From: Patescibacteria group bacterium
Lineage (GTDB): Bacteria; Patescibacteriota; Patescibacteriia; UM-FILTER-42-10
DNA: 64,000 bases
Direction: 5' to 3'
NCBI GenBank assembly: GCA_041666845.1
Contig: JBAYGC010000007.1
Span: forward strand, 6,080 to 70,079
Under the pieces are notes generated by a model. The model made no database searches. It was not told the origin of the DNA and saw only the letters and a program-made list of their open reading frames with translations. The stretch's first letter is position 1, and every line of letters begins with the position of its first letter. Made by a program: the position numbers and the translations under genes. Positions 1,339 through 16,462 of the stretch are shown here, piece after piece.

Positions 1339-2087
1339 ATTTTAATCTTCATTAAATCTTCTCCAAGTATTAATTTGCCTTTATAGAATTTTTTGACATC
1401 TTTCTTATTGTTTCGCTTATCAGCAGCGGGGTAGAAATGTGTTAATACTAGTTTTTTCACCATCGCCTCTTGTGCAACCATTCCAGCCTGCCCTGGAGTG
1501 GGATGCACTTCCTGAGCACCATATCTTTTTGATAATCCTACGGAATGCAATAACACATCTGCTTTAGAAGCTAGCTCAACGGATTTTTTACAGTATTTTG
1601 AATCCGAGGTGAAAACAAATGTTTTTCCTTTTTCAGATATCCTATACCCAATTATTTCCCCTATGTGCTTTAAAGAATTTGATTTAACCCTAGTACCAAA
1701 TAAATTAAACTCTCTTTTATTAATAGTTTTTACTTCCATTGGTATATTTATATTCCACTGAGCAACGATTTTCTTTACACCACTTGGTCCATAGATTTTG
1801 ATCTTTTTAACTTTCTTTTTTGGATATTCTCCAAATTCAGGATAAGCTATTTGATGTTTTAGCTCATTTAGGATAACCGGCAGATCTAGATAATGATCTT
1901 TATGAAAATGAGTATACAAGATTGCATCAATATCCAATATATGTTTCCCCGCTCTCAATAATTGTCGAGCGCAACCTGCTCCAGTGTCAATGAGGATATT
2001 CTTGCCAGAAACTTCTAAAAGGTAAGCGGGGGCACTTCTTTTGATAGATACTCGATTTGTACCAGATCCTAATATCGTGAGTTTCAT
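1335..2087 (-). CDS. MBL-fold metallo-hydrolase (RNase Z/beta-lactamase-like)
   Basis: 250 aa; HxHxDH motif (HFHKDHY), DTGAG context. Confidence 0.7.
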   Translation of the reverse strand: MKLTILGSGTNRVSIKRSAPAYLLEVSGKNILIDTGAGCARQLLRAGKHILDIDAILYTHFHKDHYLDLPVILNELKHQIAYPEFGEYPKKKVKKIKIYGPSGVKKIVAQWNINIPMEVKTINKREFNLFGTRVKSNSLKHIGEIIGYRISEKGKTFVFTSDSKYCKKSVELASKADVLLHSVGLSKRYGAQEVHPTPGQAGMVAQEAMVKKLVLTHFYPAADKRNNKKDVKKFYKGKLILGEDLMKIKI

Positions 2088-2161
2088 AATGTTGAGTAAA
2101 ATCTTATTATTATATGGACAATTCTTATTTTAACACATTTTCAATAAAAAATTAAAAACGC

Positions 2162-2190
2162 TTGACAAATATACGGCGGTATTATATCTT
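2162..2190 (+). promoter_or_regulatory. sigma70-like promoter of GC-rich island 1 (TTGACA -35, TATA-rich -10)
   Basis: TTGACA at 2162-2167, TATATC/TATCTT region 2183-2190 at 15-17 nt spacing. Confidence 0.4.
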
Positions 2191-2330
2191 TACTTAATTA
2201 AAGTGCTTTATTACGATAAAGTACCAATCGATCTTTAACAAGTAAATCATGCGGAATATCCCTCTCCCCAGAAATGCAAACGACTGTTGCGCAATTCGCG
2301 ACTTCCAACCCGAGACAGGGAGGTGCTATC

Positions 2331-2573
2331 ATGGCGATTGACCCGACCAGCATTATCACAGCTCTCAACAACCTGAGCGGAGTCACCAACATTTCGGAAA
2401 ACGGCAGTTTGACCGTCCGGATCCCCGACGACAGTGGAAACACGGTGCACGTTGCCGTGGACCGCTTTACCGGCATTTGCACCTCGGCTGGGCAGGTAGT
2501 TGGAACATTTTCCACTAGCGACATCAGCTGGGCGCTCCCCAGTTCAATCTTCCCCCACAGCCAGAAACAGTGA
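2331..2573 (+). CDS. Hypothetical small protein (island 1, gene A), 80 aa, GC-rich
   Basis: ATG 2331 preceded by GGGAGG (2318-2323, 7-nt spacer); track ORF 2274-2573 trimmed to SD-supported start; about 55% GC vs AT-rich flanks; no recognisable motif. Confidence 0.4.
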   Translation: MAIDPTSIITALNNLSGVTNISENGSLTVRIPDDSGNTVHVAVDRFTGICTSAGQVVGTFSTSDISWALPSSIFPHSQKQ

Positions 2574-2657
2574 GCTGTTCCCCACCAACGCTCTCCTCAT
2601 CTGAAGTGACGACAATGTAGCGCCTTTACGAGGGCGCGCAACAAAGGAGGGTGAACC

Positions 2658-2927
2658 ATGGACAGGCAGTTCGTTATCACCGAGATCTGCAAACACATTC
2701 GGTCCCATCGGGACCGGAGGCTCGGTGCGTGCATCGACATCATTATCCCCTGGGGTAACAGTTGCCAGCTTTCCGTCCGCGTCGAGCGGGTGACCGGCAA
2801 GTGCATCAATTTGCACACCGATATGGAGATGCTGACCATTGACCCCCAGATCCTCGACGCGGCGTTTGCCGGGAAAGCGGTGGCTGAGCAGACCGACGGA
2901 CCACAATCCATGGGAGCTTACGCATGA
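2658..2927 (+). CDS. Hypothetical small protein (island 1, gene B), 89 aa
   Basis: ATG 2658 with near-consensus SD AAAGGAGGG (2643-2651, 6-nt spacer); stop TGA 2925-2927; followed by hairpin+T-run. Confidence 0.45.
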   Translation: MDRQFVITEICKHIRSHRDRRLGACIDIIIPWGNSCQLSVRVERVTGKCINLHTDMEMLTIDPQILDAAFAGKAVAEQTDGPQSMGAYA

Positions 2928-2966
2928 TTTGCAGATCGTTCGCCCTCACCGGGCGAAACACAAAAA

Positions 2967-3019
2967 GGCGACCAACACCTTAAGATTGCAACATCTTCAG
3001 CGGTCGCCTCGTTTTTTAT
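2967..3019 (+). terminator. Putative intrinsic terminator of island 1 (GGCGACC...GGTCGCC + TCGTTTTTTAT)
   Basis: 7-bp GC stem 2967-2973/3002-3008 (long 28-nt loop) followed by T-run 3011-3019; overlaps last codons of folC on opposite strand. Confidence 0.35.
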
Positions 3020-4316
3020 CCCTTAGAATTTCACCAATGGTGTATAGTGAGCCGGTAATAATTACTGCTCCGTCTTTCCCAGCCAATTTCTTCGCCTTAA
3101 CAATGCCACCATCTAATGAAGTCGTAATTATCCCTCTTGGATAATATTTTTTTAATTTTGATGCATGATAAAAATCCTTAAGATCATCAATTTTCGTTAC
3201 ATCGGGGAAAACTATTTTTTGAGAAAAAGCGGAAAGCGTGCGCAGTATTTCCGGCACTTGTTTTTTGGTATTTTTAATGCTGACGACAAAAACTGTATTG
3301 CCTGATTTTATTTTTACATCCCTTAATGCTTTTATGAGTGCTCTGATGCTGAATAAATTATGCGCACCGTCTAGAATAACTAGCGGATTTCTGTACCAGA
3401 TCTGGAATCTTGCTTCGTGTGCGGTGTTTGCAGATGCTTTAACAATTGCCTTTGACGGTATTTCAAACCCTTGGTCGCGCAATTGCAGAGCCGTCGCTAA
3501 TGCGCAGGCAAAGTTTTCCGCCTGATGTCTGCCAATCAGGGAGAGTCTCAGATTACGATATGTTTCACCCTGATAGTTGAGATCAATATAGGTTCCGGTC
3601 AAATCGACTTTATTGACTGAATATTTCAGGTCTTGATTAATATTGACTAATGAGGCTTTTTTAGCTTTCACTCTTTTTTTTACCACCTTCAATGCATTGC
3701 CTTTCACTGCTGTCACAACCTGGTCATTTGCTTGAATAATTCCGGCTTTTTCACCTGCTATTTTAGTAATCGTATTGCCGAGCGATTTAGTATGATCAAA
3801 ACTGATATTGGTAATGATTTTATTTTTCAAATTTACCGCAGTTGTGGCATCCAACCTCCCGCCCATACCAACCTCGATAACGACTACATCCGTTTTTTCT
3901 TCAGCAAAATACTGCACCGCAAGCGCAGTTGTAAATTCAAAAAAAGTAACATGGTCTCCACGTTTGCCGATTTCTTTCAATATTGGAATCATTCTATCAC
4001 CAATTTTTTTTACTCTTTGCAGTGAAATCGGCCTACCGTCGATCAAAATCCTTTCACTGGGCGATACTAAATACGGAGAATAGAATGATCCCGTTTTATA
4101 ACCGGCTTCTCTCAGGATTCTTTCTAGGAATGCCACCGTGGAACCTTTCCCCTTAGTACCGGCCACCTGCACGCCGACCAGTTTTTTTTCCGGACTACCC
4201 ATTTTCTTGAGTAGTGCTTTCACCCGGTGTAGTTGCAAAAAATCCCTACTGACAAAACGCGGGTCGTAAGGTTTCAGATATTCTTGGTACTGATTGAATA
4301 TTTCTTTTGCGCGCAC
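2997..4316 (-). CDS. folC: Mur ligase family protein, folylpolyglutamate synthase/dihydrofolate synthase-like (FolC)
   Basis: 439 aa; P-loop VAGTKGKGST typical of Mur ligase/FolC; C-terminal codons (KKRGDR) lie inside GC-rich island terminator. Confidence 0.75.
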   Translation of the reverse strand: MRAKEIFNQYQEYLKPYDPRFVSRDFLQLHRVKALLKKMGSPEKKLVGVQVAGTKGKGSTVAFLERILREAGYKTGSFYSPYLVSPSERILIDGRPISLQRVKKIGDRMIPILKEIGKRGDHVTFFEFTTALAVQYFAEEKTDVVVIEVGMGGRLDATTAVNLKNKIITNISFDHTKSLGNTITKIAGEKAGIIQANDQVVTAVKGNALKVVKKRVKAKKASLVNINQDLKYSVNKVDLTGTYIDLNYQGETYRNLRLSLIGRHQAENFACALATALQLRDQGFEIPSKAIVKASANTAHEARFQIWYRNPLVILDGAHNLFSIRALIKALRDVKIKSGNTVFVVSIKNTKKQVPEILRTLSAFSQKIVFPDVTKIDDLKDFYHASKLKKYYPRGIITTSLDGGIVKAKKLAGKDGAVIITGSLYTIGEILRDKKRGDR

Positions 4317-5146
4317 TACTTTTTTCTCAATTTCTTTAATAATTTAATATCACTCCCCCTATCTTCTGCTGGGGTCTCTAGAATAAAGTCCACATTTTTT
4401 AATTTCGGGTGATTAATTAAAACTGCAAATCCTTTTTCACCGATTTCTCCTTTTCCAATATGTTCGTGCCGATCAACTTTGGCGTTTAATTCTACTTTAG
4501 AATCATTAGCATGAATTAATTGCAACAAATCAAGTCCGATAGCCTGATCAAATTTCTTGAGTGTTTCATCAACATCTTTTTTTGTCCGCAAATCATAACC
4601 AGAAGCAAAAGCATGAGCCGTATCAAAACAGACGGCTACTTTTTTGTGATCCACTTTTTTTATTATTTCACCGATCTCTTCAAAACTGTCACCAATAATA
4701 TTGCCCGATCCCGCAGCAATCTCCAGTAGGAAAGTTGCGTCACCTTTGTAGCCAATCAGCAATTGTTTGATTCCATCAATAACCATCCGCAGTGCTTTGG
4801 CACGAGTAAAATCCTTGGAAGACCCCAAGTGAGTCATTACCGCCGCCACTCCTAATTGGGAGGCGCGATCCAGTTCTTCCCGGATAATACTGATCGAACC
4901 GTTCCGCACCCGGTCCTGTTTTGAAGCAAGATTAATATAGTAAGGGGTATGGATATATGCATTGCCCAATCCGCTATCTTTGATATTCTGCTGAAATTTT
5001 TTTACAATCTCATCATTAATTTCCGGCGCTTTACCACCACGCGGTGAACGTGAAAACATTTGAAAACATTCACACCCTTCTGCTTTAGCATTCAGCGGTG
5101 CGTTTTCCAGACCTCCGGCTATTGATACGTGAGCTCCAATATTCAT
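4316..5146 (-). CDS. nfo: Deoxyribonuclease IV / endonuclease IV (Nfo)
   Basis: 276 aa TIM-barrel AP endonuclease 2 family; metal-binding His/Asp/Glu pattern (HxxY, HANDS, EHIG). Confidence 0.9.
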   Translation of the reverse strand: MNIGAHVSIAGGLENAPLNAKAEGCECFQMFSRSPRGGKAPEINDEIVKKFQQNIKDSGLGNAYIHTPYYINLASKQDRVRNGSISIIREELDRASQLGVAAVMTHLGSSKDFTRAKALRMVIDGIKQLLIGYKGDATFLLEIAAGSGNIIGDSFEEIGEIIKKVDHKKVAVCFDTAHAFASGYDLRTKKDVDETLKKFDQAIGLDLLQLIHANDSKVELNAKVDRHEHIGKGEIGEKGFAVLINHPKLKNVDFILETPAEDRGSDIKLLKKLRKK

Positions 5147-5174
5147 AGTGTAATTATAACAGATGCTGATAAAA

Positions 5175-5203
5175 TTGACATCGAATTATTTCATTGTTAT
5201 TAT
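5175..5203 (+). promoter_or_regulatory. sigma70-like promoter of island 2 gene A (TTGACA-17-TATTAT)
   Basis: TTGACA 5175-5180, 17-nt spacer, TATTAT 5198-5203. Confidence 0.5.
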
Positions 5204-5271
5204 GTCGGTTCTGGTTAGTGTAATCATCCCCTAACCAAGTCCGCTCATTTTAATGGTGGAAGGAGCCAGTC

Positions 5272-5679
5272 GTGGCCAACGATAGAGAGAAACGACACGC
5301 CTTTGAATTCCTTGTACACTGCCTCATCGGGGACGTTGCGCATGCCAAGGTGTTGCATGCACTAATTGACGCCGGGTCAGTCTCTTATGAAGAGCTGGGG
5401 ATTACCCCGGATGACATGGCAGTATTCCAGGCCCTATCCTGTATTGCAGACCCCAAGGAGCGTGCCCTATCGGCACTCCGCGGTTGTCGTGAAGGCAAGG
5501 TCCTCGCCAACTTCGGCGTGATTCAGTATCTATTCCGTTCCCGCCAAGTCCAACTGGCCGACCTGCAAGAGGGCGACAACGGCATCCTCAAAGTCGGCTC
5601 CGATCTGAGTCATTTTCACAAAGCACACACAGCACACCTCACCAGAATTCTTCCCCAGGAAGACCCTGCGCAAGACTAG
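5272..5679 (+). CDS. Hypothetical protein (island 2, gene A), 135 aa, GC-rich, His-rich C-terminus
   Basis: GTG start 5272 with SD GGAAGGAG (5258-5265); about 58% GC; no family recognised; no competing minus-strand ORF. Confidence 0.45.
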   Translation: MANDREKRHAFEFLVHCLIGDVAHAKVLHALIDAGSVSYEELGITPDDMAVFQALSCIADPKERALSALRGCREGKVLANFGVIQYLFRSRQVQLADLQEGDNGILKVGSDLSHFHKAHTAHLTRILPQEDPAQD

Positions 5680-5698
5680 TTTCTTGCGTTTTTTTTAT
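5669..5698 (+). terminator. Intrinsic terminator after island 2 gene A
   Basis: CGCAAGA(5669-5675)/TCTTGCG(5682-5688) stem, 6-nt loop, T8 run 5689-5697. Confidence 0.55.
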
Positions 5699-5721
5699 TC
5701 TTTATGATTTCAACCAATATT

Positions 5722-5750
5722 TTGACATATTTGTTTCATCATGATATGTT
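5722..5750 (+). promoter_or_regulatory. sigma70-like promoter of island 2 gene B (TTGACA-17-TATGTT)
   Basis: TTGACA 5722-5727, 17-nt spacer, TATGTT 5745-5750. Confidence 0.45.
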
Positions 5751-5805
5751 TTGCCAACCGCTGTTCGCTGGGGAACGGGGTAACTAACATCTGTAGGAGA
5801 CACTC

Positions 5806-6042
5806 TTGTTCTCGAAGCGCAGAATCAGAAAGTTTGTACGGCGGATTATCGCCTCAGCAGTTGGAGTAGGCATCGGGCTGATTCCGGCATGGTTTCTGCT
5901 CTATGACCTGCATACTGCCAAGAGTGGTGTGCTCTACTTCGCTCGCTGGTTGTGGCTCATTCTCACTGTACAGTTCTTTCTACTCATTCTAGTTTTCGCC
6001 TGGGTCTGGGCGGTCTGGACCAACCGGATCTATGACCTCTAA
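5806..6042 (+). CDS. Hypothetical small membrane protein (island 2, gene B), 78 aa, two predicted TM helices
   Basis: TTG start 5806 with SD AGGAGA (5795-5800, 5-nt spacer); two hydrophobic stretches (IIASAVGVGIGLIPAWFLL; WLWLILTVQFFLLILVFAWVWAVW). Confidence 0.45.
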   Translation: MFSKRRIRKFVRRIIASAVGVGIGLIPAWFLLYDLHTAKSGVLYFARWLWLILTVQFFLLILVFAWVWAVWTNRIYDL

Positions 6043-6071
6043 CGCAAGTTGAACACTTGCGTCTTTTTATT
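6043..6071 (+). terminator. Intrinsic terminator after island 2 gene B
   Basis: CGCAAGT/ACTTGCG 7-bp stem, 5-nt loop, TCTTTTTAT. Confidence 0.55.
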
Positions 6072-9027: not shown

Positions 9028-9762
9028 CTATTTTTTGCTCTGCTCTATTTCTTTCTCCCTATCACGCAATAACCGCTTGGCTAATGTTAACCCTGCTGTT
9101 GTACAAAAATATTTTTCACTATCAACCGCAAGGTTCTTGAGATATAAATCTGGTTCCACATTTTTTCTGATTGTATCCTGCCAAAAATTTTCGTGTGTAA
9201 AAGACCAAAGTCTGTCTAAATCTGCAACTAATTTGCCGTTTTCAGATAGTTTTTCCATAGTATCATGATATAACACGGAATCCAAAATCTCCTGTTTTTC
9301 CATTACATTTAATGGCGGATCAAATCTATAATTATCCAGAATCCGCCTAGAAACTTTTACCCCTTCAATAACATGACGCTCCTTAGGTCCTAGCGAAGCA
9401 CTACTAAGCTCCAGTCCTTTATAATCAGATAAACTGCCTATTATGTCTTTTTCGGTCAAACTTGCCCAGCCGATATCATGTAGAATAAGACCCAAAGCAA
9501 CTACTCTTCTATTTATCTTACCATTATATAAAGCAATAAGCATGTCCAGATAAGACAAAGAGATGGCCGTGTGTACATCTGTTGTTCTGACATGCAGATG
9601 CGGTAAAGCCTGGAGAAAAAAATCTTTGAATTCTTCCTGGACGTAATCTAAATAGCTATCTCTCCACGGGATATAGACTAGAGTATTACTCGTTGAATTT
9701 TCAGAAGTAACTAACTCTATGTCTTTAGGAATTAATTTATTTTTAAATTTCTTGAACTTCAT
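9028..9762 (-). CDS. HD-domain phosphohydrolase
   Basis: 244 aa; HD motif (LILHDIGW) preceded by conserved His. Confidence 0.5.
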   Translation of the reverse strand: MKFKKFKNKLIPKDIELVTSENSTSNTLVYIPWRDSYLDYVQEEFKDFFLQALPHLHVRTTDVHTAISLSYLDMLIALYNGKINRRVVALGLILHDIGWASLTEKDIIGSLSDYKGLELSSASLGPKERHVIEGVKVSRRILDNYRFDPPLNVMEKQEILDSVLYHDTMEKLSENGKLVADLDRLWSFTHENFWQDTIRKNVEPDLYLKNLAVDSEKYFCTTAGLTLAKRLLRDREKEIEQSKK

Positions 9763-9764
9763 TT

Positions 9765-10421
9765 TTATCGCTCCACCGGCTTGCCGGTCAGATAAGAAAT
9801 TTTTCCTAGAACCTGCTCGGTAATTCCGTGTAGTATTTCTTTTCCCAACTCCTGATTATAATATGAGTCAAAGGTTACAGGCTTACCAAAATTTATTTTG
9901 ACTTCATGTTTCCTGCAAAAAATTAACGGTAATAATTTTACTTCCTTATCATTCGGGCCAATATAGCCAACGGGAATGACCGGGCATTTTGCCCATAATG
10001 CTAAACGGGCCACCCCCGTTCTCCCCCGGCCGATCGTATTATCATAGTGTCTGTGTCCTTCTGGGAATATCCCGACTACTCCGCCCTGTTTCAGATGATC
10101 AGACGCTATTTCCAAACAGCGTCCCGGGTTTTCCTTCTCAACATAAATCATACCGAACCACCGCTCACCGACAAATTTGCCAAAGAATTTCTTCAATTCA
10201 ATTTTACTAATAAACCTTATCTTCAATTTGCTCCGGCGCGCGACGACTGACGCCAACAATGGCGGATCCATAAAACTCACGTGATTGGAAGCTATAATAT
10301 AAGGGCCATTCTTCGGCAGATTCTCAATTCCGTTAATCTCTTTTATCCTAAGCATAATAATCGGCGACAAAATCATCCTTAAAAAATGAAAAATTAAAGT
10401 TTCTTTTTTTCTTCTTACCAT
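9765..10421 (-). CDS. plsC: 1-acyl-sn-glycerol-3-phosphate acyltransferase (PlsC family)
   Basis: 218 aa; HX4D acyltransferase motif NHVSFMD; FPEG motif (GIFPEGHR). Confidence 0.8.
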   Translation of the reverse strand: MVRRKKETLIFHFLRMILSPIIMLRIKEINGIENLPKNGPYIIASNHVSFMDPPLLASVVARRSKLKIRFISKIELKKFFGKFVGERWFGMIYVEKENPGRCLEIASDHLKQGGVVGIFPEGHRHYDNTIGRGRTGVARLALWAKCPVIPVGYIGPNDKEVKLLPLIFCRKHEVKINFGKPVTFDSYYNQELGKEILHGITEQVLGKISYLTGKPVER

Positions 10422-10960
10422 CTTTCTTTATTTACTTTTAAATAGTAACCGATATTCCGTACTAAAATATGTAAAACAAAGGTGAACACAACTAACACTA
10501 ATGAACGTATCCAACCGACCGGCCAAATAATTGATATTAAAGCAATCGCTCCAATCGCGGCGTCAATTTGATCCCAAGGCATGAATTTTTTACCCGGTTC
10601 AATCCCTACCCTTCGCTTGATAAAACTTTTTACCATATCTCCAAGTAAGGCACCAAATCCGATCAAAAATCCTACCAGCCATACTGAATATTGGTCATAA
10701 GGAAACATGCTGATCTTTTCGAATATTTCAAACTGCATTAACCATCTTTGGATCGCGACAACTATAATACTTGCCACTACCCCACTAATCAAACCTCGCC
10801 AAGTCTTATGATCGCCAAGCAGATTCTTGCCGTCAAACCATTTCAAATTAAAATCAACCGGACGAGCCAGCCACAGCCAGTGTTTTTTCATTAAAACCGG
10901 CATCATATTAGCAAAAATGCCGGGTAGCATAAAATATAAATAAGTTAAGAGGATCATCAA
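10415..10960 (-). CDS. CDP-alcohol/CDP-archaeol synthase-like membrane cytidylyltransferase (CarS/DUF46 family)
   Basis: 181 aa polytopic membrane protein; overlaps plsC by 7 nt; pattern GDHKTWRG...K..G resembles CTP-transferase-like family. Confidence 0.5.
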   Translation of the reverse strand: MMILLTYLYFMLPGIFANMMPVLMKKHWLWLARPVDFNLKWFDGKNLLGDHKTWRGLISGVVASIIVVAIQRWLMQFEIFEKISMFPYDQYSVWLVGFLIGFGALLGDMVKSFIKRRVGIEPGKKFMPWDQIDAAIGAIALISIIWPVGWIRSLVLVVFTFVLHILVRNIGYYLKVNKERW

Positions 10961-11024
10961 TTATCGCTTTACTTATGATAGATCAAGGTTATTTTACCAT
11001 TTTATAAACCTTTTTAAAAGTATC

Positions 11025-11053
11025 TTGACGCTTCATAGATAATGCTTTAGTAT
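11025..11053 (+). promoter_or_regulatory. sigma70-like promoter of island 3 (TTGACG-17-TAGTAT)
   Basis: TTGACG 11025-11030, 17-nt spacer, TAGTAT 11048-11053. Confidence 0.45.
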
Positions 11054-11274
11054 GGGAAATACATTAACAATTTGTTCAAGTTATCAAGAGTGATTCAGAT
11101 CCCGCCAATGCGGGAATATGCAGGACCGGCCTGCTAAAAACTGGATCCAGCAACCCTCTCCAAGGAGGAATGGGTGCTAACTCCGGCCCTATGCGGGGAA
11201 GATGATAGAAGTAAGATGCTTTCCTTAGGGAAAGTTTTTGTTTTGACTGCACCACTCCAACCGGGAGGGACCTC
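11054..11274 (+). promoter_or_regulatory. Structured 5' leader of island 3: hairpins, SD+GTG uORF start, terminator-like hairpin with U-tract
   Basis: hairpins CCCGCcaatGCGGG (11101-11114) and GCAGGaccggCCTGC (11120-11134); SD AAGGAGG 11162-11168 + GTG 11174; hairpin CTTTCC ttag GGAAAG (11219-11234) followed by TTTTTGTTTTG (11235-11245). Confidence 0.4.
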
Positions 11275-11622
11275 GTGGCTAACCCAACCAGTAATCAGGT
11301 CTTCCACGTCCTGTGCCGTCGAGCCGGGAAGATCGGCTACTATTCCCACGGTCATCCGCTGTGCAACCTGATTCTGGGACGTGAAGTATTCCTCTGCGAA
11401 CGCCATTACACCCCCAGCGGTTGGATCACGCGAATAGTCTGCGTTCCGCCGGAGGACATCCTCAACTACGTCGGTGAAGAAGACGCTCGAGTGATCCGAT
11501 CGAAATTCCCAACCTTCTCTGATCAGTTCACCATCAACGGTGACAACTACCCACAGCCGGAAGGGTTCGGTCCTCCTGTGAGGATCGAGCTGGAGCTGGA
11601 GCCTGCACCGCGGGCAAAGTAA
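11275..11622 (+). CDS. Hypothetical Cys/His-rich protein (island 3, gene A), 115 aa
   Basis: GTG 11275 with SD GGGAGGG (11263-11269, 5-nt spacer); about 57% GC; no family recognised. Confidence 0.45.
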   Translation: MANPTSNQVFHVLCRRAGKIGYYSHGHPLCNLILGREVFLCERHYTPSGWITRIVCVPPEDILNYVGEEDARVIRSKFPTFSDQFTINGDNYPQPEGFGPPVRIELELEPAPRAK

Positions 11623-11632
11623 GGAGCAGGTC

Positions 11633-11833
11633 ATGTCGCTGCGCGATGGACTCACACTTGCTGAGGCGACTGTTCGCCAACAGCACCTGGATCAGGCACA
11701 TCAAACAACTTCCCTTGCCGAAGACGAGCGCATCGTCCGGAGAGCAATTGCCCAGTACGAAGCAGGCGACGACACTCCGGTAGCCCGGGTAATCTCCAAA
11801 TGGATCGCCAGCCGCACGGCGCAATCGTTCTAA
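11633..11833 (+). CDS. Hypothetical small protein (island 3, gene B), 66 aa
   Basis: ATG 11633 with SD AAGGAG (11621-11626, 6-nt spacer); 10 nt after gene A stop (translationally coupled arrangement); followed by terminator. Confidence 0.45.
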   Translation: MSLRDGLTLAEATVRQQHLDQAHQTTSLAEDERIVRRAIAQYEAGDDTPVARVISKWIASRTAQSF

Positions 11834-11853
11834 TCGTACATTCACCCAATTCG

Positions 11854-11893
11854 AAAGGACCATGGTTCCCCACGGTCCTTTTTTTATTTTTAC
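11854..11893 (+). terminator. Intrinsic terminator of island 3
   Basis: AAAGGACCATGG ttcc CCACGGTCCTT stem (1 mismatch) followed by TTTTTTTATTTTT. Confidence 0.6.
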
Positions 11894-11901
11894 AACCTAT
11901 T

Positions 11902-13917
11902 CTAGATAAGCAGGCCAACAATCAGTAATGCAACCACATTAATTACTTTAATCATCGGGTTGATCGCCGGACCGGCAGTATCTTTATACGGATCACCGAC
12001 TGTGTCGCCAGTTACCGCCGCCTGATGAGCCGGGGAATTTTTCCCGCCATAATGCCCGTCTTCAATATATTTCTTGGCATTGTCCCAGGCCGCTCCACCC
12101 GCTGTCATTGAAAGTGCCACAAAGACACCGGTGATGATCGAACCGATCAACATTCCGCCTAGTGCATCGATCCCCAATAAAAATCCAACGGCAATTGGTG
12201 CAACAACCGGGATTGCTGCTGGAAAGATCATTTCTTTCAATGCCGCTTTAGTAACAATATCAACTGCTTTACCGTATTCCGGTTTGGCAGTACCTTCCAT
12301 AATTCCTTTTATTTCACGAAACTGTCTGCGCACTTCTTCAACGACACTGGTTGCCGCACGACCAACTGAGCGCATCGCAACTGAACCGAATAAATATGGC
12401 AGAGAACCGCCGATGAATAAGCCGATCAGAACATTATGGTTGCTCAAAGCAAACTGAGCATCAATTCCTTTATCCATAATTTCCTGCACGTATGATGCAA
12501 ACAATACCATCGCGGCCAGACCAGCTGAGGCGATTGCATATCCTTTGGTTACTGCTTTGGTTGTATTACCAACAGAATCCAGTGGATCAGTAACAGCTCT
12601 TACCGATTCCGGCATGTCGGACATTTCAGCAATCCCGCCCGCGTTATCAGTAATCGGACCGAAAGAATCGATTGCGACAATAATTCCCGTTAGAGAAAGC
12701 ATGGCCATAGTTGCAATGGAAATCCCGTATAAACCAAGATCATAATCTCCCAGCAACATATAGCTGGCCAGTATTCCACCGACAATCACCAGCACCGGTA
12801 GGAAGGTAGATTCCATGCTCACTGATATTCCTGTAATAATATTTGTCCCATGCCCGCCCTCTGATGATTTGGCAATACTTTGGACCGGACGATGTTCTTT
12901 CGATGTATAGTATTCTGTAATTACCACAATCAATCCGGTAATCACCAAACCAATTAGACTGGCGTAGAATATACTCATAGCATAAGGTTTGTCACCGAAC
13001 GCATTATCAGTTGCAAAGTAGAAAAGGACAGCCGCGACCAGACCGCTGACAATTATTCCCTTGTACAAAGCACCCATGATGTTCGGTTTGTTGTTATTTA
13101 ACCGGACAAAGAAACTGCCGATAACCGAAGCAATAATCGCCAGCCCACCTAAAATCAAAGGAAATTCAACCGCTGTCTGTTGTAATACATTGTCGCTCTT
13201 GAATATTAGTGAACCCAGTAACATTGCGGCAATCGTTGAAACCGCATATGTCTCAAACAAGTCCGCTGCCATGCCGGCACAGTCACCGACGTTGTCACCG
13301 ACATTGTCCGCAATCACAGCTGGGTTACGTGGATCATCCTCCGGGATACCTGCTTCAACTTTTCCAACCAAGTCCGCTCCAACGTCCGCGCCCTTGGTGA
13401 AAATACCACCACCCAGGCGGGCAAACACTGAGATCAGCGATCCTCCCAAGCCCAATCCAACTAGCGCTTTAAGATCTGAAGTAATAAAATAAAAACCGGC
13501 GACAGATAATAAACCGAGACCAACCACCATGAATCCGGTTACTGCACCACCCTGGAAAGCAATATCAAAAGCTTTTTTAATTCCAGATCTAGCCGCTTCT
13601 GCTGTTCGTACATTAGTGCGTACTGAAACATTCATACCAATATATCCGGCAAGTGCTGAACTGATTGCACCAATCAGAAATCCGAAAGCGGTCAGTTTGC
13701 CAAGCGCGAACCAAAGGATTACGAAAAGAATCACAGCAACAATTGCTACTGTCTTGTATTCCCGCTTAATGAAAGCGGCGGAACCCTCGCGGATAGCCCG
13801 GGCGATATCTTTTTGTTTACCTTCACCCTCTGGTTTTTTCATTATCGAAATAATAAGGAAAATACCATAAGCAAGCGCGATCAGCGCTGCTACGATAGAC
13901 CAATGCACAAGTCTCAT
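11902..13917 (-). CDS. hppA: Membrane-bound proton/sodium-translocating pyrophosphatase (H+-PPase)
   Basis: 671 aa polytopic; signature [19 protein letters not shown] and [21 protein letters not shown]. Confidence 0.95.
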
Positions 13918-15361: not shown

Positions 15362-15396
15362 TTATATAAAAAAAGCTATCTTGTGAGAGATAGCTA
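15362..15396 (-). terminator. Intrinsic terminator of prs (minus strand)
   Basis: AGCTATCT tgtgag AGATAGCT stem (15374-15395) overlapping stop codon, followed on minus strand by TTTTTTTATATAA. Confidence 0.55.
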
Positions 15397-16377
15397 GCGC
15401 TGTTCAAAGCAGATGTCCGAGACTGAGGTCTCGGTGGTAATCGCCTCGATTGCCGGGGCGAAAACATCTGCAAAAGAGCAAACCTTGATCTTCGAGCCGG
15501 GACCCGCCTTCGTGCCAACGGGGATAGTATCCCCCACCACTAGCGACTTCAGGCAGGAGCGTTCGATCTTACCTACGGCATCCCCGGAGAACACCGGATG
15601 TGCCGCGATCCCGTAAACCACTCTGGCACCAGCGTCCAGTAGTGCCTCCGCAGCGCCGATTATTGAGCCGGCGCCGTCCACCATGTCGTCCAGAACGATG
15701 CAGATGCATCCCTTCGGATCGCCGTAGATCTCGTTGACCCGGGACTGCCCGTGCCCGCTACGCTCCTTGTCGATGATTACGACACGATCTCCCGGGAAAC
15801 GGAACTTGCGGTAGTTGCGGACCATTTTGCCGCCGTTGACATCCGAGGACACTAGGGCTAGCGGCGTATCCGGGCCGTACTCTTCCCGTTCGCTCAACAC
15901 GATCCGCTTGATCTCCGGCACCATTACCGGATACATGTACAGGTGGTCACAGGGGATGTTGAAGAACCCCTGGATCTGCGCGGCGTGCAGTTCTGCCGTA
16001 ACCACCCGGCTGGCACCGGCCGTGGCCAGCAGGTCAGCGACTAGTCTGGCAGTAATCGGTACCCGCCCTTCCTTCTTGCGGTCCTGGCGCGCGCAGCCGA
16101 AATACGGCATAACGGCCGTAACAGCGGCGGCTGAAGCCCGTTTGGCAGCATCAATCATCACAAGCAACTGCATCAGGTTGTCGGCCGGCGAGTAAGTGGA
16201 CTGGATGATGAAAACGTGCCGGCCGCGCACATTCGCATTCAGCTGAGCAAACGGTTCCCCGTCAGCAAACGGAGTGGTCTTGGCCGAGCTCAAGGGAACA
16301 CCCAGTTTGGACGCGATCGCCTGAGCCAGCTCAGGGCACGATCCACCGGAAAACAGGACGATTCTGGAGAGATCCAT
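15394..16377 (-). CDS. prs: Ribose-phosphate pyrophosphokinase (PRPP synthetase), about 60% GC
   Basis: motifs FADGE, YFGCARQDRK, ELHAAQIQGFF, DDMVDGAGS; likely ATG at 16375-16377 with SD GAGGAGG (track ORF begins at upstream GTG 16386); strongly GC-rich relative to neighbours. Confidence 0.85.
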   Translation of the reverse strand: MDLSRIVLFSGGSCPELAQAIASKLGVPLSSAKTTPFADGEPFAQLNANVRGRHVFIIQSTYSPADNLMQLLVMIDAAKRASAAAVTAVMPYFGCARQDRKKEGRVPITARLVADLLATAGASRVVTAELHAAQIQGFFNIPCDHLYMYPVMVPEIKRIVLSEREEYGPDTPLALVSSDVNGGKMVRNYRKFRFPGDRVVIIDKERSGHGQSRVNEIYGDPKGCICIVLDDMVDGAGSIIGAAEALLDAGARVVYGIAAHPVFSGDAVGKIERSCLKSLVVGDTIPVGTKAGPGSKIKVCSFADVFAPAIEAITTETSVSDICFEQR

Positions 16378-16462
16378 CGCCGCCACCTCCTCACAGGCAA
16401 GTTACAGGGTTTCGGGTTGTCAAAGTATATTACCTTAACATGACCGTTAGGAGAATTCAAGT

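Follow-up and report, generated by a model that had tools for sequence, protein, structure and literature searches.

The DNA analysed here, called the window, is a stretch of 64,000 nucleotides (nt) from a Patescibacteria group bacterium (contig JBAYGC010000007.1). Its G+C content is ~40%, with several G+C-rich islands, and one of these islands consists of a structured leader followed by two small orphan genes, A and B. The island lies between a CarS-like gene (10415-10960) and an H+-pyrophosphatase gene (11902-13917), both on the minus strand. An earlier note on this DNA had described a promoter, two GC hairpins, an upstream open reading frame (ORF) and a terminator-like hairpin ahead of the two genes, and had considered translation-coupled attenuation or a riboswitch expression platform as the mode of control; all the sequence features that it named were located where it had placed them. 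The leader belongs to a known riboswitch class, the S-adenosylmethionine (SAM) riboswitch SAM-I, of which it is a peripheral structural variant associated with an orphan operon in a narrow clade of Patescibacteria.

At the curated Rfam thresholds, only three tRNAs were found over the window. When the island was scanned by E-value, as the earlier note had proposed for the leader, the SAM-I family RF00162 matched positions 11078-11208 over its full length (model positions 1-108) with 33.5 bits, and no other family came close (RF00162 E = 4e-6 on 241 nt and 1.7e-5 on 1 kb). RF00162 was also the best match in clan competition, the overlapping clan match scoring lower. Two related families, SAM-IV (RF00634) and the SAM-I/IV variant (RF01725), were considered and rejected, as they fit worse and the P4 helix of the window lies inside the junction, as in SAM-I. 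In the SAM-IV and SAM-I/IV families, P4 lies outside the junction. The features of the leader and the operon are collected in Table 1.

Table 1. Features of the leader and the A/B operon, in window positions
Feature	Position and elements	Strand	Basis or remark
Sigma-70-type promoter	TTGACG 11025-11030, 17-nt spacer, TAGTAT 11048-11053	+	promoter scan
SAM-I-class aptamer, four-way junction P1-P4, branched P2	11080-11207	+	RF00162, model R1
P1	5' strand GUUAUC 11080-11085, paired with GAUGAU 11201-11206	+	manual structure, five sequences, 54-sequence alignment
P2 domain	11090-11148; basal stem 11090 and 11092-11098, paired with 11141-11148	+	encloses three-way junction
P2x, extra hairpin	11100-11115, UCCCGC/GCGGGA, loop CAAU	+	fold and covariation
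P2b hairpin	11120-11134, GCAGG/CCUGC, loop ACCGG	+	fold and covariation
P3 with conserved GCAAC/GGUGC core	11149-11178	+	Rfam alignment, structure check
P4, short hairpin	11187-11197, CCC/GGG	+	Rfam alignment, structure check
Pseudoknot	P2b loop CCGG 11126-11129, paired with J3/4 CCGG 11183-11186	+	sequence and covariation
Antiterminator (ON)	11187-11203 (CCCUA...GGGGAAGAU, P4 and P1 3' strand), paired with 11216-11230 (AU.GCUUUCCUUAGGG)	+	minimum-free-energy fold
Intrinsic terminator (OFF)	11218-11245, GCUUUCC-UUAG-GGAAAGU, then UUUUGUUUUG	+	terminator scan, -9.1 kcal/mol
Gene A Shine-Dalgarno sequence	GGGAGGG 11263-11269, 5 nt before GTG 11275	+	sequence
Gene A, 115-aa orphan	11275-11622, GTG start	+	third-position substitutions dominate
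Gene B, 66-aa orphan	11633-11833, ATG start	+	own Shine-Dalgarno AAGGAG 11621-11626 overlaps the stop codon of A
Operon terminator	11853-11890 (hairpin 11853-11882), 9+3 bp hairpin, then T-run	+	-16.1 kcal/mol, z = -3.8

The aptamer is well formed in the window. All 40 modelled base pairs are standard there, and the pairs of P1 are standard in five sequences, i.e., the window and four relatives. Outside the distal part of P2, the RF00162 alignment has high posterior probability. The two GC hairpins of the earlier note (CCCGC/GCGGG at 11101-11114 and GCAGG/CCUGC at 11120-11134) are indeed present, but as branches of P2 rather than free-standing hairpins; the linkers around the resulting three-way junction are AU, AAUAU and UAAAAA. 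Outside the kink-turn and P2b, the highly conserved nucleotides of SAM-I are U4, A6, U7, G11, A12, G43, C44, A45, C47, G56, U57, G58, C59, A61, A87 and U88, among which the G11-C44-G58 triple reads the methionine moiety of SAM (PMC3764141). Counterparts of all these positions are present in the window, within UUAUCAAGAG, GCAAC, GGUGCUAA and AGAUGAU, and they are invariant in the five lineages.

The distribution and conservation of the locus were estimated from its relatives. Among 5.8 billion proteins searched, the close relatives of gene A amount to six protein clusters only, all from metagenome-assembled genomes of Patescibacteria, and the order CarS-like gene, leader-A-B, pyrophosphatase gene is syntenic in all of them. 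The promoter proposed earlier was recovered by a promoter scan, and its -35 and -10 hexamers are unchanged in the five lineages, with transcription probably starting near 11060. Conservation of the leader extends from the -35 hexamer up to and including the terminator, and identity averages 87% over its whole length and 94% over the aptamer. Between the same lineages, 30-47% of third codon positions differ in gene A and the flanking host genes, and 33-45% in gene A alone. The contrast between the 94% identity of the aptamer and the divergence of gene A indicates conservation beyond chance. Conserved structure in homologous leaders, on which the earlier note had made its reading depend, was thus found, both in this identity and in the covariation described below.

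A search for the SAM-I core with a long P2 was made in one genome per GTDB species, using the pattern TATCAAGAG-N48-75-GCAACC-N8-30-GGTGCYAA. It returned 71 loci, and most of the inserts fold as a basal stem carrying an extra hairpin and a P2b-like hairpin. A covariance model, R1, was built from the five aptamers of the A/B clade and a manually derived structure. R1 finds exactly one copy in the window (158.6 bits); outside it, 50 other long-P2 aptamers were recovered with E values of up to 0.01. In the alignment of 54 distinct sequences, 95.8% of the cells are standard pairs, compared with 72.7% in shuffled alignments and at most 48% when the partners were slid; since the alignment is fitted to the model, these pair counts lean toward the structure, although the slid controls and the diversity of pair types remain clear. 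Compensatory changes occur at 30 of the 40 pairs. Neither the pairing level nor this number was approached by any of 500 shuffles or by any slid structure. The compensatory changes include all six pairs of P2x, all five pairs of P2b and seven of the eight pairs of the basal stem; within the close clade, P2x carries a compensatory change from C-G to A-U in one relative (L001).

Covariation extends to the pseudoknot, for which the P2b loop and J3/4 show the combinations CCGG/CCGG, CUGG/CCAG, CUAG/CUAG, UUGG/CCAA, UUAG/CUAA, AUGG/CCAU, CUCG/CGAG and UUCG/CGAA. Among 17 distinct combinations of loop and J3/4, 12 can form at least four consecutive pairs, compared with 4.6 ± 1.2 when the partners were shuffled, and none of 1000 shuffles reached 12. 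The branched P2 recurs with covariation in at least 55 aptamers, and the kink-turn has been lost in most of them.

These structural siblings also have a telling genomic context. The SAM synthetase gene metK lies within 1.5 kb downstream of 44 of the 50, which places the structural subclass where a SAM sensor belongs. Many of the siblings are from Patescibacteria (Saccharibacteria, Paceibacterota, Microgenomates, Gottesmanbacteria and others), and the rest from Oscillospiraceae/Ruminococcaceae and Gastranaerophilales. Of the 18 metK-type siblings that were scanned, only 3 attain the Rfam cut-off. In 17 of the 50, a 3' strand (N)AUGA resembling that of a kink-turn is kept and the extra helix sits in the opposite strand; these 17 could be true k-junctions. 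A few branched-P2 aptamers do not precede metK (GTDB loci L044 at 4769-4918, L013, L023, L024 and L056), and the genes behind them include unrecognised ORFs of 125, 211 and 555 aa. Judged from N-terminal sequences alone, we take the ORFs of L044 and L023 to resemble a SpoU-type methyltransferase and a DUF39-type homocysteine-synthesis protein.

The region between the aptamer and gene A has the properties of a switch. The internal terminator-like hairpin of the earlier note was recovered in a terminator scan, with a stem at 11218-11235 followed by TTTTTGTTTTG to 11245. It is the sole plus-strand site reported in 10900-11950, where two sites were reported in total (the other on the minus strand), compared with 0.9 ± 1.0 in shuffled sequences. 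In the ligand-free leader, the minimum-free-energy fold contains the antiterminator, which consumes both the 5' arm and the loop of the terminator. The ON and OFF folds are at -49.5 and -47.9 kcal/mol, i.e., the aptamer with the terminator is 1.6 kcal/mol less stable before any contribution of ligand or tertiary contacts. The three-way complementarity among GGGGAAG, CUUUCC and GGAAAG is kept in L005, and in L008 CUUUCC has changed to CUUCCC, which is compatible with both partners (terminator CUUCCC/GGGAAG). The same alternative pairing logic holds in L005, L008 and the distant locus L081 described below, in which the corresponding segments are GGGGAAAG, CUUUCCCC and GGAAAG. In the window, the 3' strand of P1 can belong either to the aptamer or to an antiterminator in competition with an intrinsic terminator, as is typical of S-box platforms. 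Between the two modes considered in the earlier note, it is the riboswitch expression platform that is borne out, the 3' strands of P1 and P4 of a SAM-I aptamer competing with the terminator.

From these pairings the following mechanism can be proposed. The sigma-70-type promoter would drive a leader of ~215 nt with the aptamer core at 11080-11207. When SAM is abundant, the ligand would lock P1, P4 and the pseudoknot between the P2b loop and J3/4, and the locked aptamer would free GCUUUCC (11218-11224) to pair with GGAAAGU (11229-11235). The terminator hairpin and its U-tract would then stop transcription near 11240-11245, before gene A is reached. When SAM is scarce, the 3' strands of P4 and P1 (11187-11203) would pair with 11216-11230 as the antiterminator, and RNA polymerase would read through into a bicistronic operon of A (11275-11622) and B (11633-11833). 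With P2x followed by P2b, the three-way junction presumably continues to hold the P2b loop in place for pseudoknot formation.

When 1.84 billion representative proteins were searched with a profile, one distant relative of gene A was recovered, P0007 (E = 1e-7, 33% identity), bringing gene A and its relatives to seven protein clusters. The P0007 genome has ~60% G+C and a similar gene order, and the gene, at locus L081, is likewise preceded by a SAM-I-like leader with a terminator. From 5' to 3', this leader contains AUUAUCCAGAG, a P2 domain, CAGCAACC, a longer P3, GGGUGCU, CUCUAG, a longer P4 (8 bp as read from the sequence, CCCUACCG/CGGUGGGG), GGGGAAAGAUGAU, and GCUUUCCCC ... GGAAAGC followed by a U-run. 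Its Rfam score is only 17.7 bits because of the ~105-nt interior of P2, which folds as three hairpins on a basal stem (z = -4.3, RNAfold). The 5' half of the L081 aptamer, with its long P2 interior, did not align to R1, and its structure combines manual reading with RNAfold. The P2b loop (AACUAG) and J3/4 (CUCUAG) of L081 have changed together relative to the CCGG/CCGG of the window.

A stretch of ~20 nt directly 5' of P1 (11060-11079, ACAUUAACAAUUUGUUCAA) is near-invariant in the five lineages, and L081 keeps a recognisable version of it at 3668-3687 (UCGUUGACAAUUCGU). No pairing partner or role was identified for this stretch.

The two downstream genes evolve as genes. In the comparison of the window with L001, substitutions at the first, second and third codon positions number 11, 13 and 37 in gene A and 7, 7 and 23 in gene B, and this excess at third positions indicates that both are translated and under purifying selection, though they evolve faster than the neighbouring genes. 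The earlier note had called them unrecognisable, which together with their reality is upheld by the codon-position pattern and by the family searches. Gene A has no match with E < 0.1 in PADLOC, Pfam, NCBIfam or PHROGs, and nothing significant was obtained for A, B or P0007 in Pfam, NCBIfam, PADLOC, PHROGs and PDB sequences. Gene B is confined to the same six close lineages as the close relatives of A, and P0007 is without a gene B alongside; gene A is thus the conserved partner of the riboswitch. Protein searches with B and P0007 gave nothing new, a metagenome scan only re-found known loci, and no relatives were found in IMG/VR viral contigs, phage genomes or plasmids. From the size and poor conservation of A and B, we would guess at small factors with a regulatory or protein-binding function, and not at enzymes.

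Structural predictions and residue patterns were of limited help. The AlphaFold2 model of gene A is unreliable (predicted local distance difference test, pLDDT, 42), and that of gene B is a helical hairpin (helices 9-43 and 49-65, pLDDT 80) with no structural match in the PDB. C30, C41, H44 and C56 of gene A, remarked upon earlier as a Cys/His-rich pattern, are invariant in the close clade; they are not found in P0007, which argues against metal binding as a feature of the whole family. A comparison of B with antitoxin and ribbon-helix-helix families, suggested earlier, gave marginal matches only (RstR, E = 0.02; RHH_9, E = 0.07 in one member), next to another marginal one to the RmrA N-terminus (E = 8e-4). 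A toxin-antitoxin or anti-phage defence module was rejected, as gene A has no match, the matches of B are marginal and the model of B is not ribbon-helix-helix. A relationship between gene A and the gene of another island termed 2A was likewise rejected (hhalign probability 0.2%), and their shared Met-Ala-Asn start, pointed out in the earlier note, is a coincidence.

In the relatives, gene A starts with ATG, preceded at the corresponding position by GGAGG. A hairpin that would sequester the Shine-Dalgarno sequence of gene A (CUCC...GGAG) was rejected, with a consensus energy of only -3.2 kcal/mol. Near the gene of P0007, a convergent 68-aa ORF on the minus strand (L081 4469-4675) has a CPRC...C...C motif and weak zinc-ribbon or rubredoxin-like matches (E ~0.03); as a candidate homologue of gene B it was dismissed, since comparison shows the two to be unrelated.

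Homology to SAM-I in sequence and structure, conservation and covariation of the fold, and the alternative ON and OFF pairings are thus all observed at this locus. They argue, with a probability that we put at roughly 0.85, that the leader acts as a SAM-I (S-box) riboswitch, an OFF switch that would control the A/B operon through transcription termination. Under this interpretation, 11080-11207 would bind SAM, termination in vivo would fall at 11240-11245, and A and B, expressed when SAM is low, would form a response to SAM limitation. Several observations weigh against it. The score of 33.5 bits is lower than the curated gathering cut-off of RF00162 (44.4 bits). The kink-turn, a hallmark of SAM-I, is missing from the window aptamer, which lacks tandem G.A pairs. 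The stem of the terminator, with 7 bp (three of them G-C) and about -9 kcal/mol, is short and weak. No connection of genes A and B with sulfur, methionine or SAM metabolism can be recognised. Finally, the aptamer is near-invariant within the A/B clade, and the covariation comes mainly from unrelated structural siblings in a model-fitted alignment. The first of these points can be explained by the replacement of the distal P2 arm with a three-way junction; the score deficit sits there, the 19 model positions of the kink-turn and P2b being taken up by 49 nt in the window. As for the second, SAM binding persisted when the kink-turn of SAM-I was experimentally exchanged for another bend (PMC4316175), so a missing kink-turn does not necessarily mean a loss of function.

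Some of the same observations would also be expected if the SAM-I fold had changed its ligand (to S-adenosylhomocysteine or another adenosyl or methionine derivative) or had none, with the terminator constitutive or governed by a protein. The atypical regulon of orphan genes, the remodelled P2 without a kink-turn, the score under the Rfam cut-off and the loss of the AA of J3/4 in L081 are consistent with such a change. We nonetheless consider it unlikely, since every known nucleotide of the SAM-recognition pocket is unchanged (PMC3764141), 44 of the 50 branched-P2 siblings precede metK and the extreme conservation of the aptamer speaks against decay.

A somewhat less probable alternative holds that the terminated leader of ~185 nt is itself the main product, a trans-acting small RNA, with regulation of A and B being secondary. 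Some SAM riboswitches elsewhere have been reported to act in trans as small RNAs. Conservation is higher in the leader, the ~20 nt upstream of P1 included, than in the genes behind it, and the same upstream stretch recurs in L081, as might be expected of such an RNA. However, no target complementarity was identified, no result supports a small RNA, and such a role would be compatible with control in cis.

The earlier note had also given weight to a 65-codon upstream ORF (11174-11371) opened by AAGGAGG (11162-11168) and GTG 11174. The ORF does exist at this place and runs through the terminator; it is not conserved, the frame from GTG 11174 being 65, 65, 38, 17 and 32 codons long in the five lineages. 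This variation is due to indels in the P4 loop and the spacer and argues against a conserved leader peptide. AAGGAGG is the 3' strand of P3, and GTG 11174 lies inside the invariant GGUGC core. Hence leader-peptide attenuation, in which a ribosome on this ORF would govern the terminator at 11218-11245, is the least credible account and can practically be dismissed: its "Shine-Dalgarno" and GTG are paired or core nucleotides of a SAM-I aptamer, its frame is neither conserved nor supplied with a run of regulatory codons, and nucleotide conservation tracks the RNA structure with no codon pattern.

If the leader is a SAM-I riboswitch, as we favor, several implications follow. Because of the branched P2, the Rfam threshold systematically misses true SAM-I riboswitches in Patescibacteria and in some gut Clostridia and Melainabacteria; with only 3 of 18 scanned siblings at the cut-off, riboswitch surveys in these groups would understate their content. 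The branched-P2 set offers natural replacements of a kink-turn by a three-way junction, and thereby a test case for the rebuilding of RNA tertiary architecture. Clues to the function of orphan genes are few, and riboswitch control, being one of them, flags A and B as SAM-responsive in an otherwise inaccessible physiology. The known principles of riboswitch action are unchanged, and the annotation of riboswitches in Patescibacteria gains a useful correction.

A broader interpretation joins two proposals: that the branched-P2 aptamers are a distinct and apparently undescribed subclass of SAM-I, with a three-way junction (in some a k-junction) in place of the kink-turn, common among Patescibacteria and in some Clostridia, and largely invisible to Rfam; and that such a riboswitch was recruited here to an orphan pair through which an organism of minimal metabolism would respond to SAM starvation in a way not known before. 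We regard this combination as possible rather than probable. A literature search of incomplete coverage found no description of a branched-P2 SAM-I subclass or of SAM riboswitches in Patescibacteria, which is weak evidence of novelty. As to the role of A and B, protection from the consequences of under-methylation or regulation of SAM use may be speculated.

Other features of the locus were noted. The operon terminator is kept in all relatives and faces the convergent H+-pyrophosphatase gene. A 173-aa ORF on the minus strand (11134-11655) was rejected as a gene, since its stop-free length varies widely among relatives and it mirrors a GC-rich coding region. The G+C content at third codon positions (GC3) of A and B is 0.52-0.72 in four lineages (window, L001, L003 and L005), compared with 0.39-0.46 in the flanking host genes, while their third-position divergence (0.31-0.50) equals that of the flanking genes (0.28-0.47). 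The high GC3 together with the neighbor-like divergence suggests that the island has long been inherited vertically, without drifting to the base composition of the host. Selection, biased repair or repeated exchange could each be the cause.

Three more G+C-rich islands lie in the window, at 2250-3000, 5200-6050 and 15394-16386. Two of them have promoter-like sites of their own, small unrecognisable ORFs (2274-2573, 2658-2927 and 5272-5679) and terminators, and a further ORF, small and hydrophobic, may lie before 6042. Scanned against Rfam by E-value, the region 2000-6000, which covers these two islands, gave no match to an RNA family. The third, 15394-16386, is a ribose-phosphate pyrophosphokinase gene (60% G+C, GC3 0.72). 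Beyond the CarS-like gene, an acyltransferase ORF (9765-10421, 218 aa) and an HD-domain ORF (9028-9762, 244 aa) on the minus strand are separate in the window, divided by a stop codon and a new ATG 2 nt apart, and the relatives have a single gene of 461-465 aa. The sequence at the junction differs locally from that of the relatives.

Compared with the SAM-I riboswitches of RF00162, such as the T. tengcongensis metF and B. subtilis yitJ and metK leaders, the window aptamer has the same four-way junction of P1-P4, the AU/AU positions of P1, an identical J1/2 (AAGAG), the P3 internal loop GCAAC/GGUGC and the pseudoknot between the P2b loop and J3/4, and it shares the OFF-switch design in which antiterminator and terminator helices make use of the P1 3' strand. 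It differs in having a three-way junction and an extra hairpin instead of a kink-turn with tandem G.A pairs, in a P4 cut to 3 bp, in its sub-cut-off score and in its downstream genes, which are orphans and not met, cys or SAM genes. With the branched-P2 metK aptamers it shares the basal stem, the extra hairpin, P2b with its pseudoknot loop, the core and the terminator platform. Unlike the window, most of these regulate metK (44/50) and some keep (N)AUGA (17/50), a motif whose G.A pairs the window lacks, and their sequence similarity is low (at most 51 bits with R1, against 158 for the window).

The k-junction of thiamine pyrophosphate (TPP) riboswitches is an elaborated kink-turn with G.A and A.G pairs and a third helix in the non-bulged strand (Wang, Daldrop, Huang and Lilley 2014, PMC4005666). 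The P2 of the window resembles it in having a third helix opposite the kink-turn loop and a three-way junction that would bend the arm for a tertiary contact of its distal loop, but the defining G.A and A.G pairs are missing and the topology alone is in common; a literature search found no paper describing a k-junction in SAM-I. Riboswitches tolerate stem-loop insertions at specific sites, and genuine matches with unusual insertions score low in covariance models (Barrick and Breaker 2007, PMC2258182). The window aptamer, a low-scoring genuine match with an unusual insertion, resembles the "variable insertions" described there; unlike those, its type of insertion is no lineage-specific oddity and recurs with covariation.

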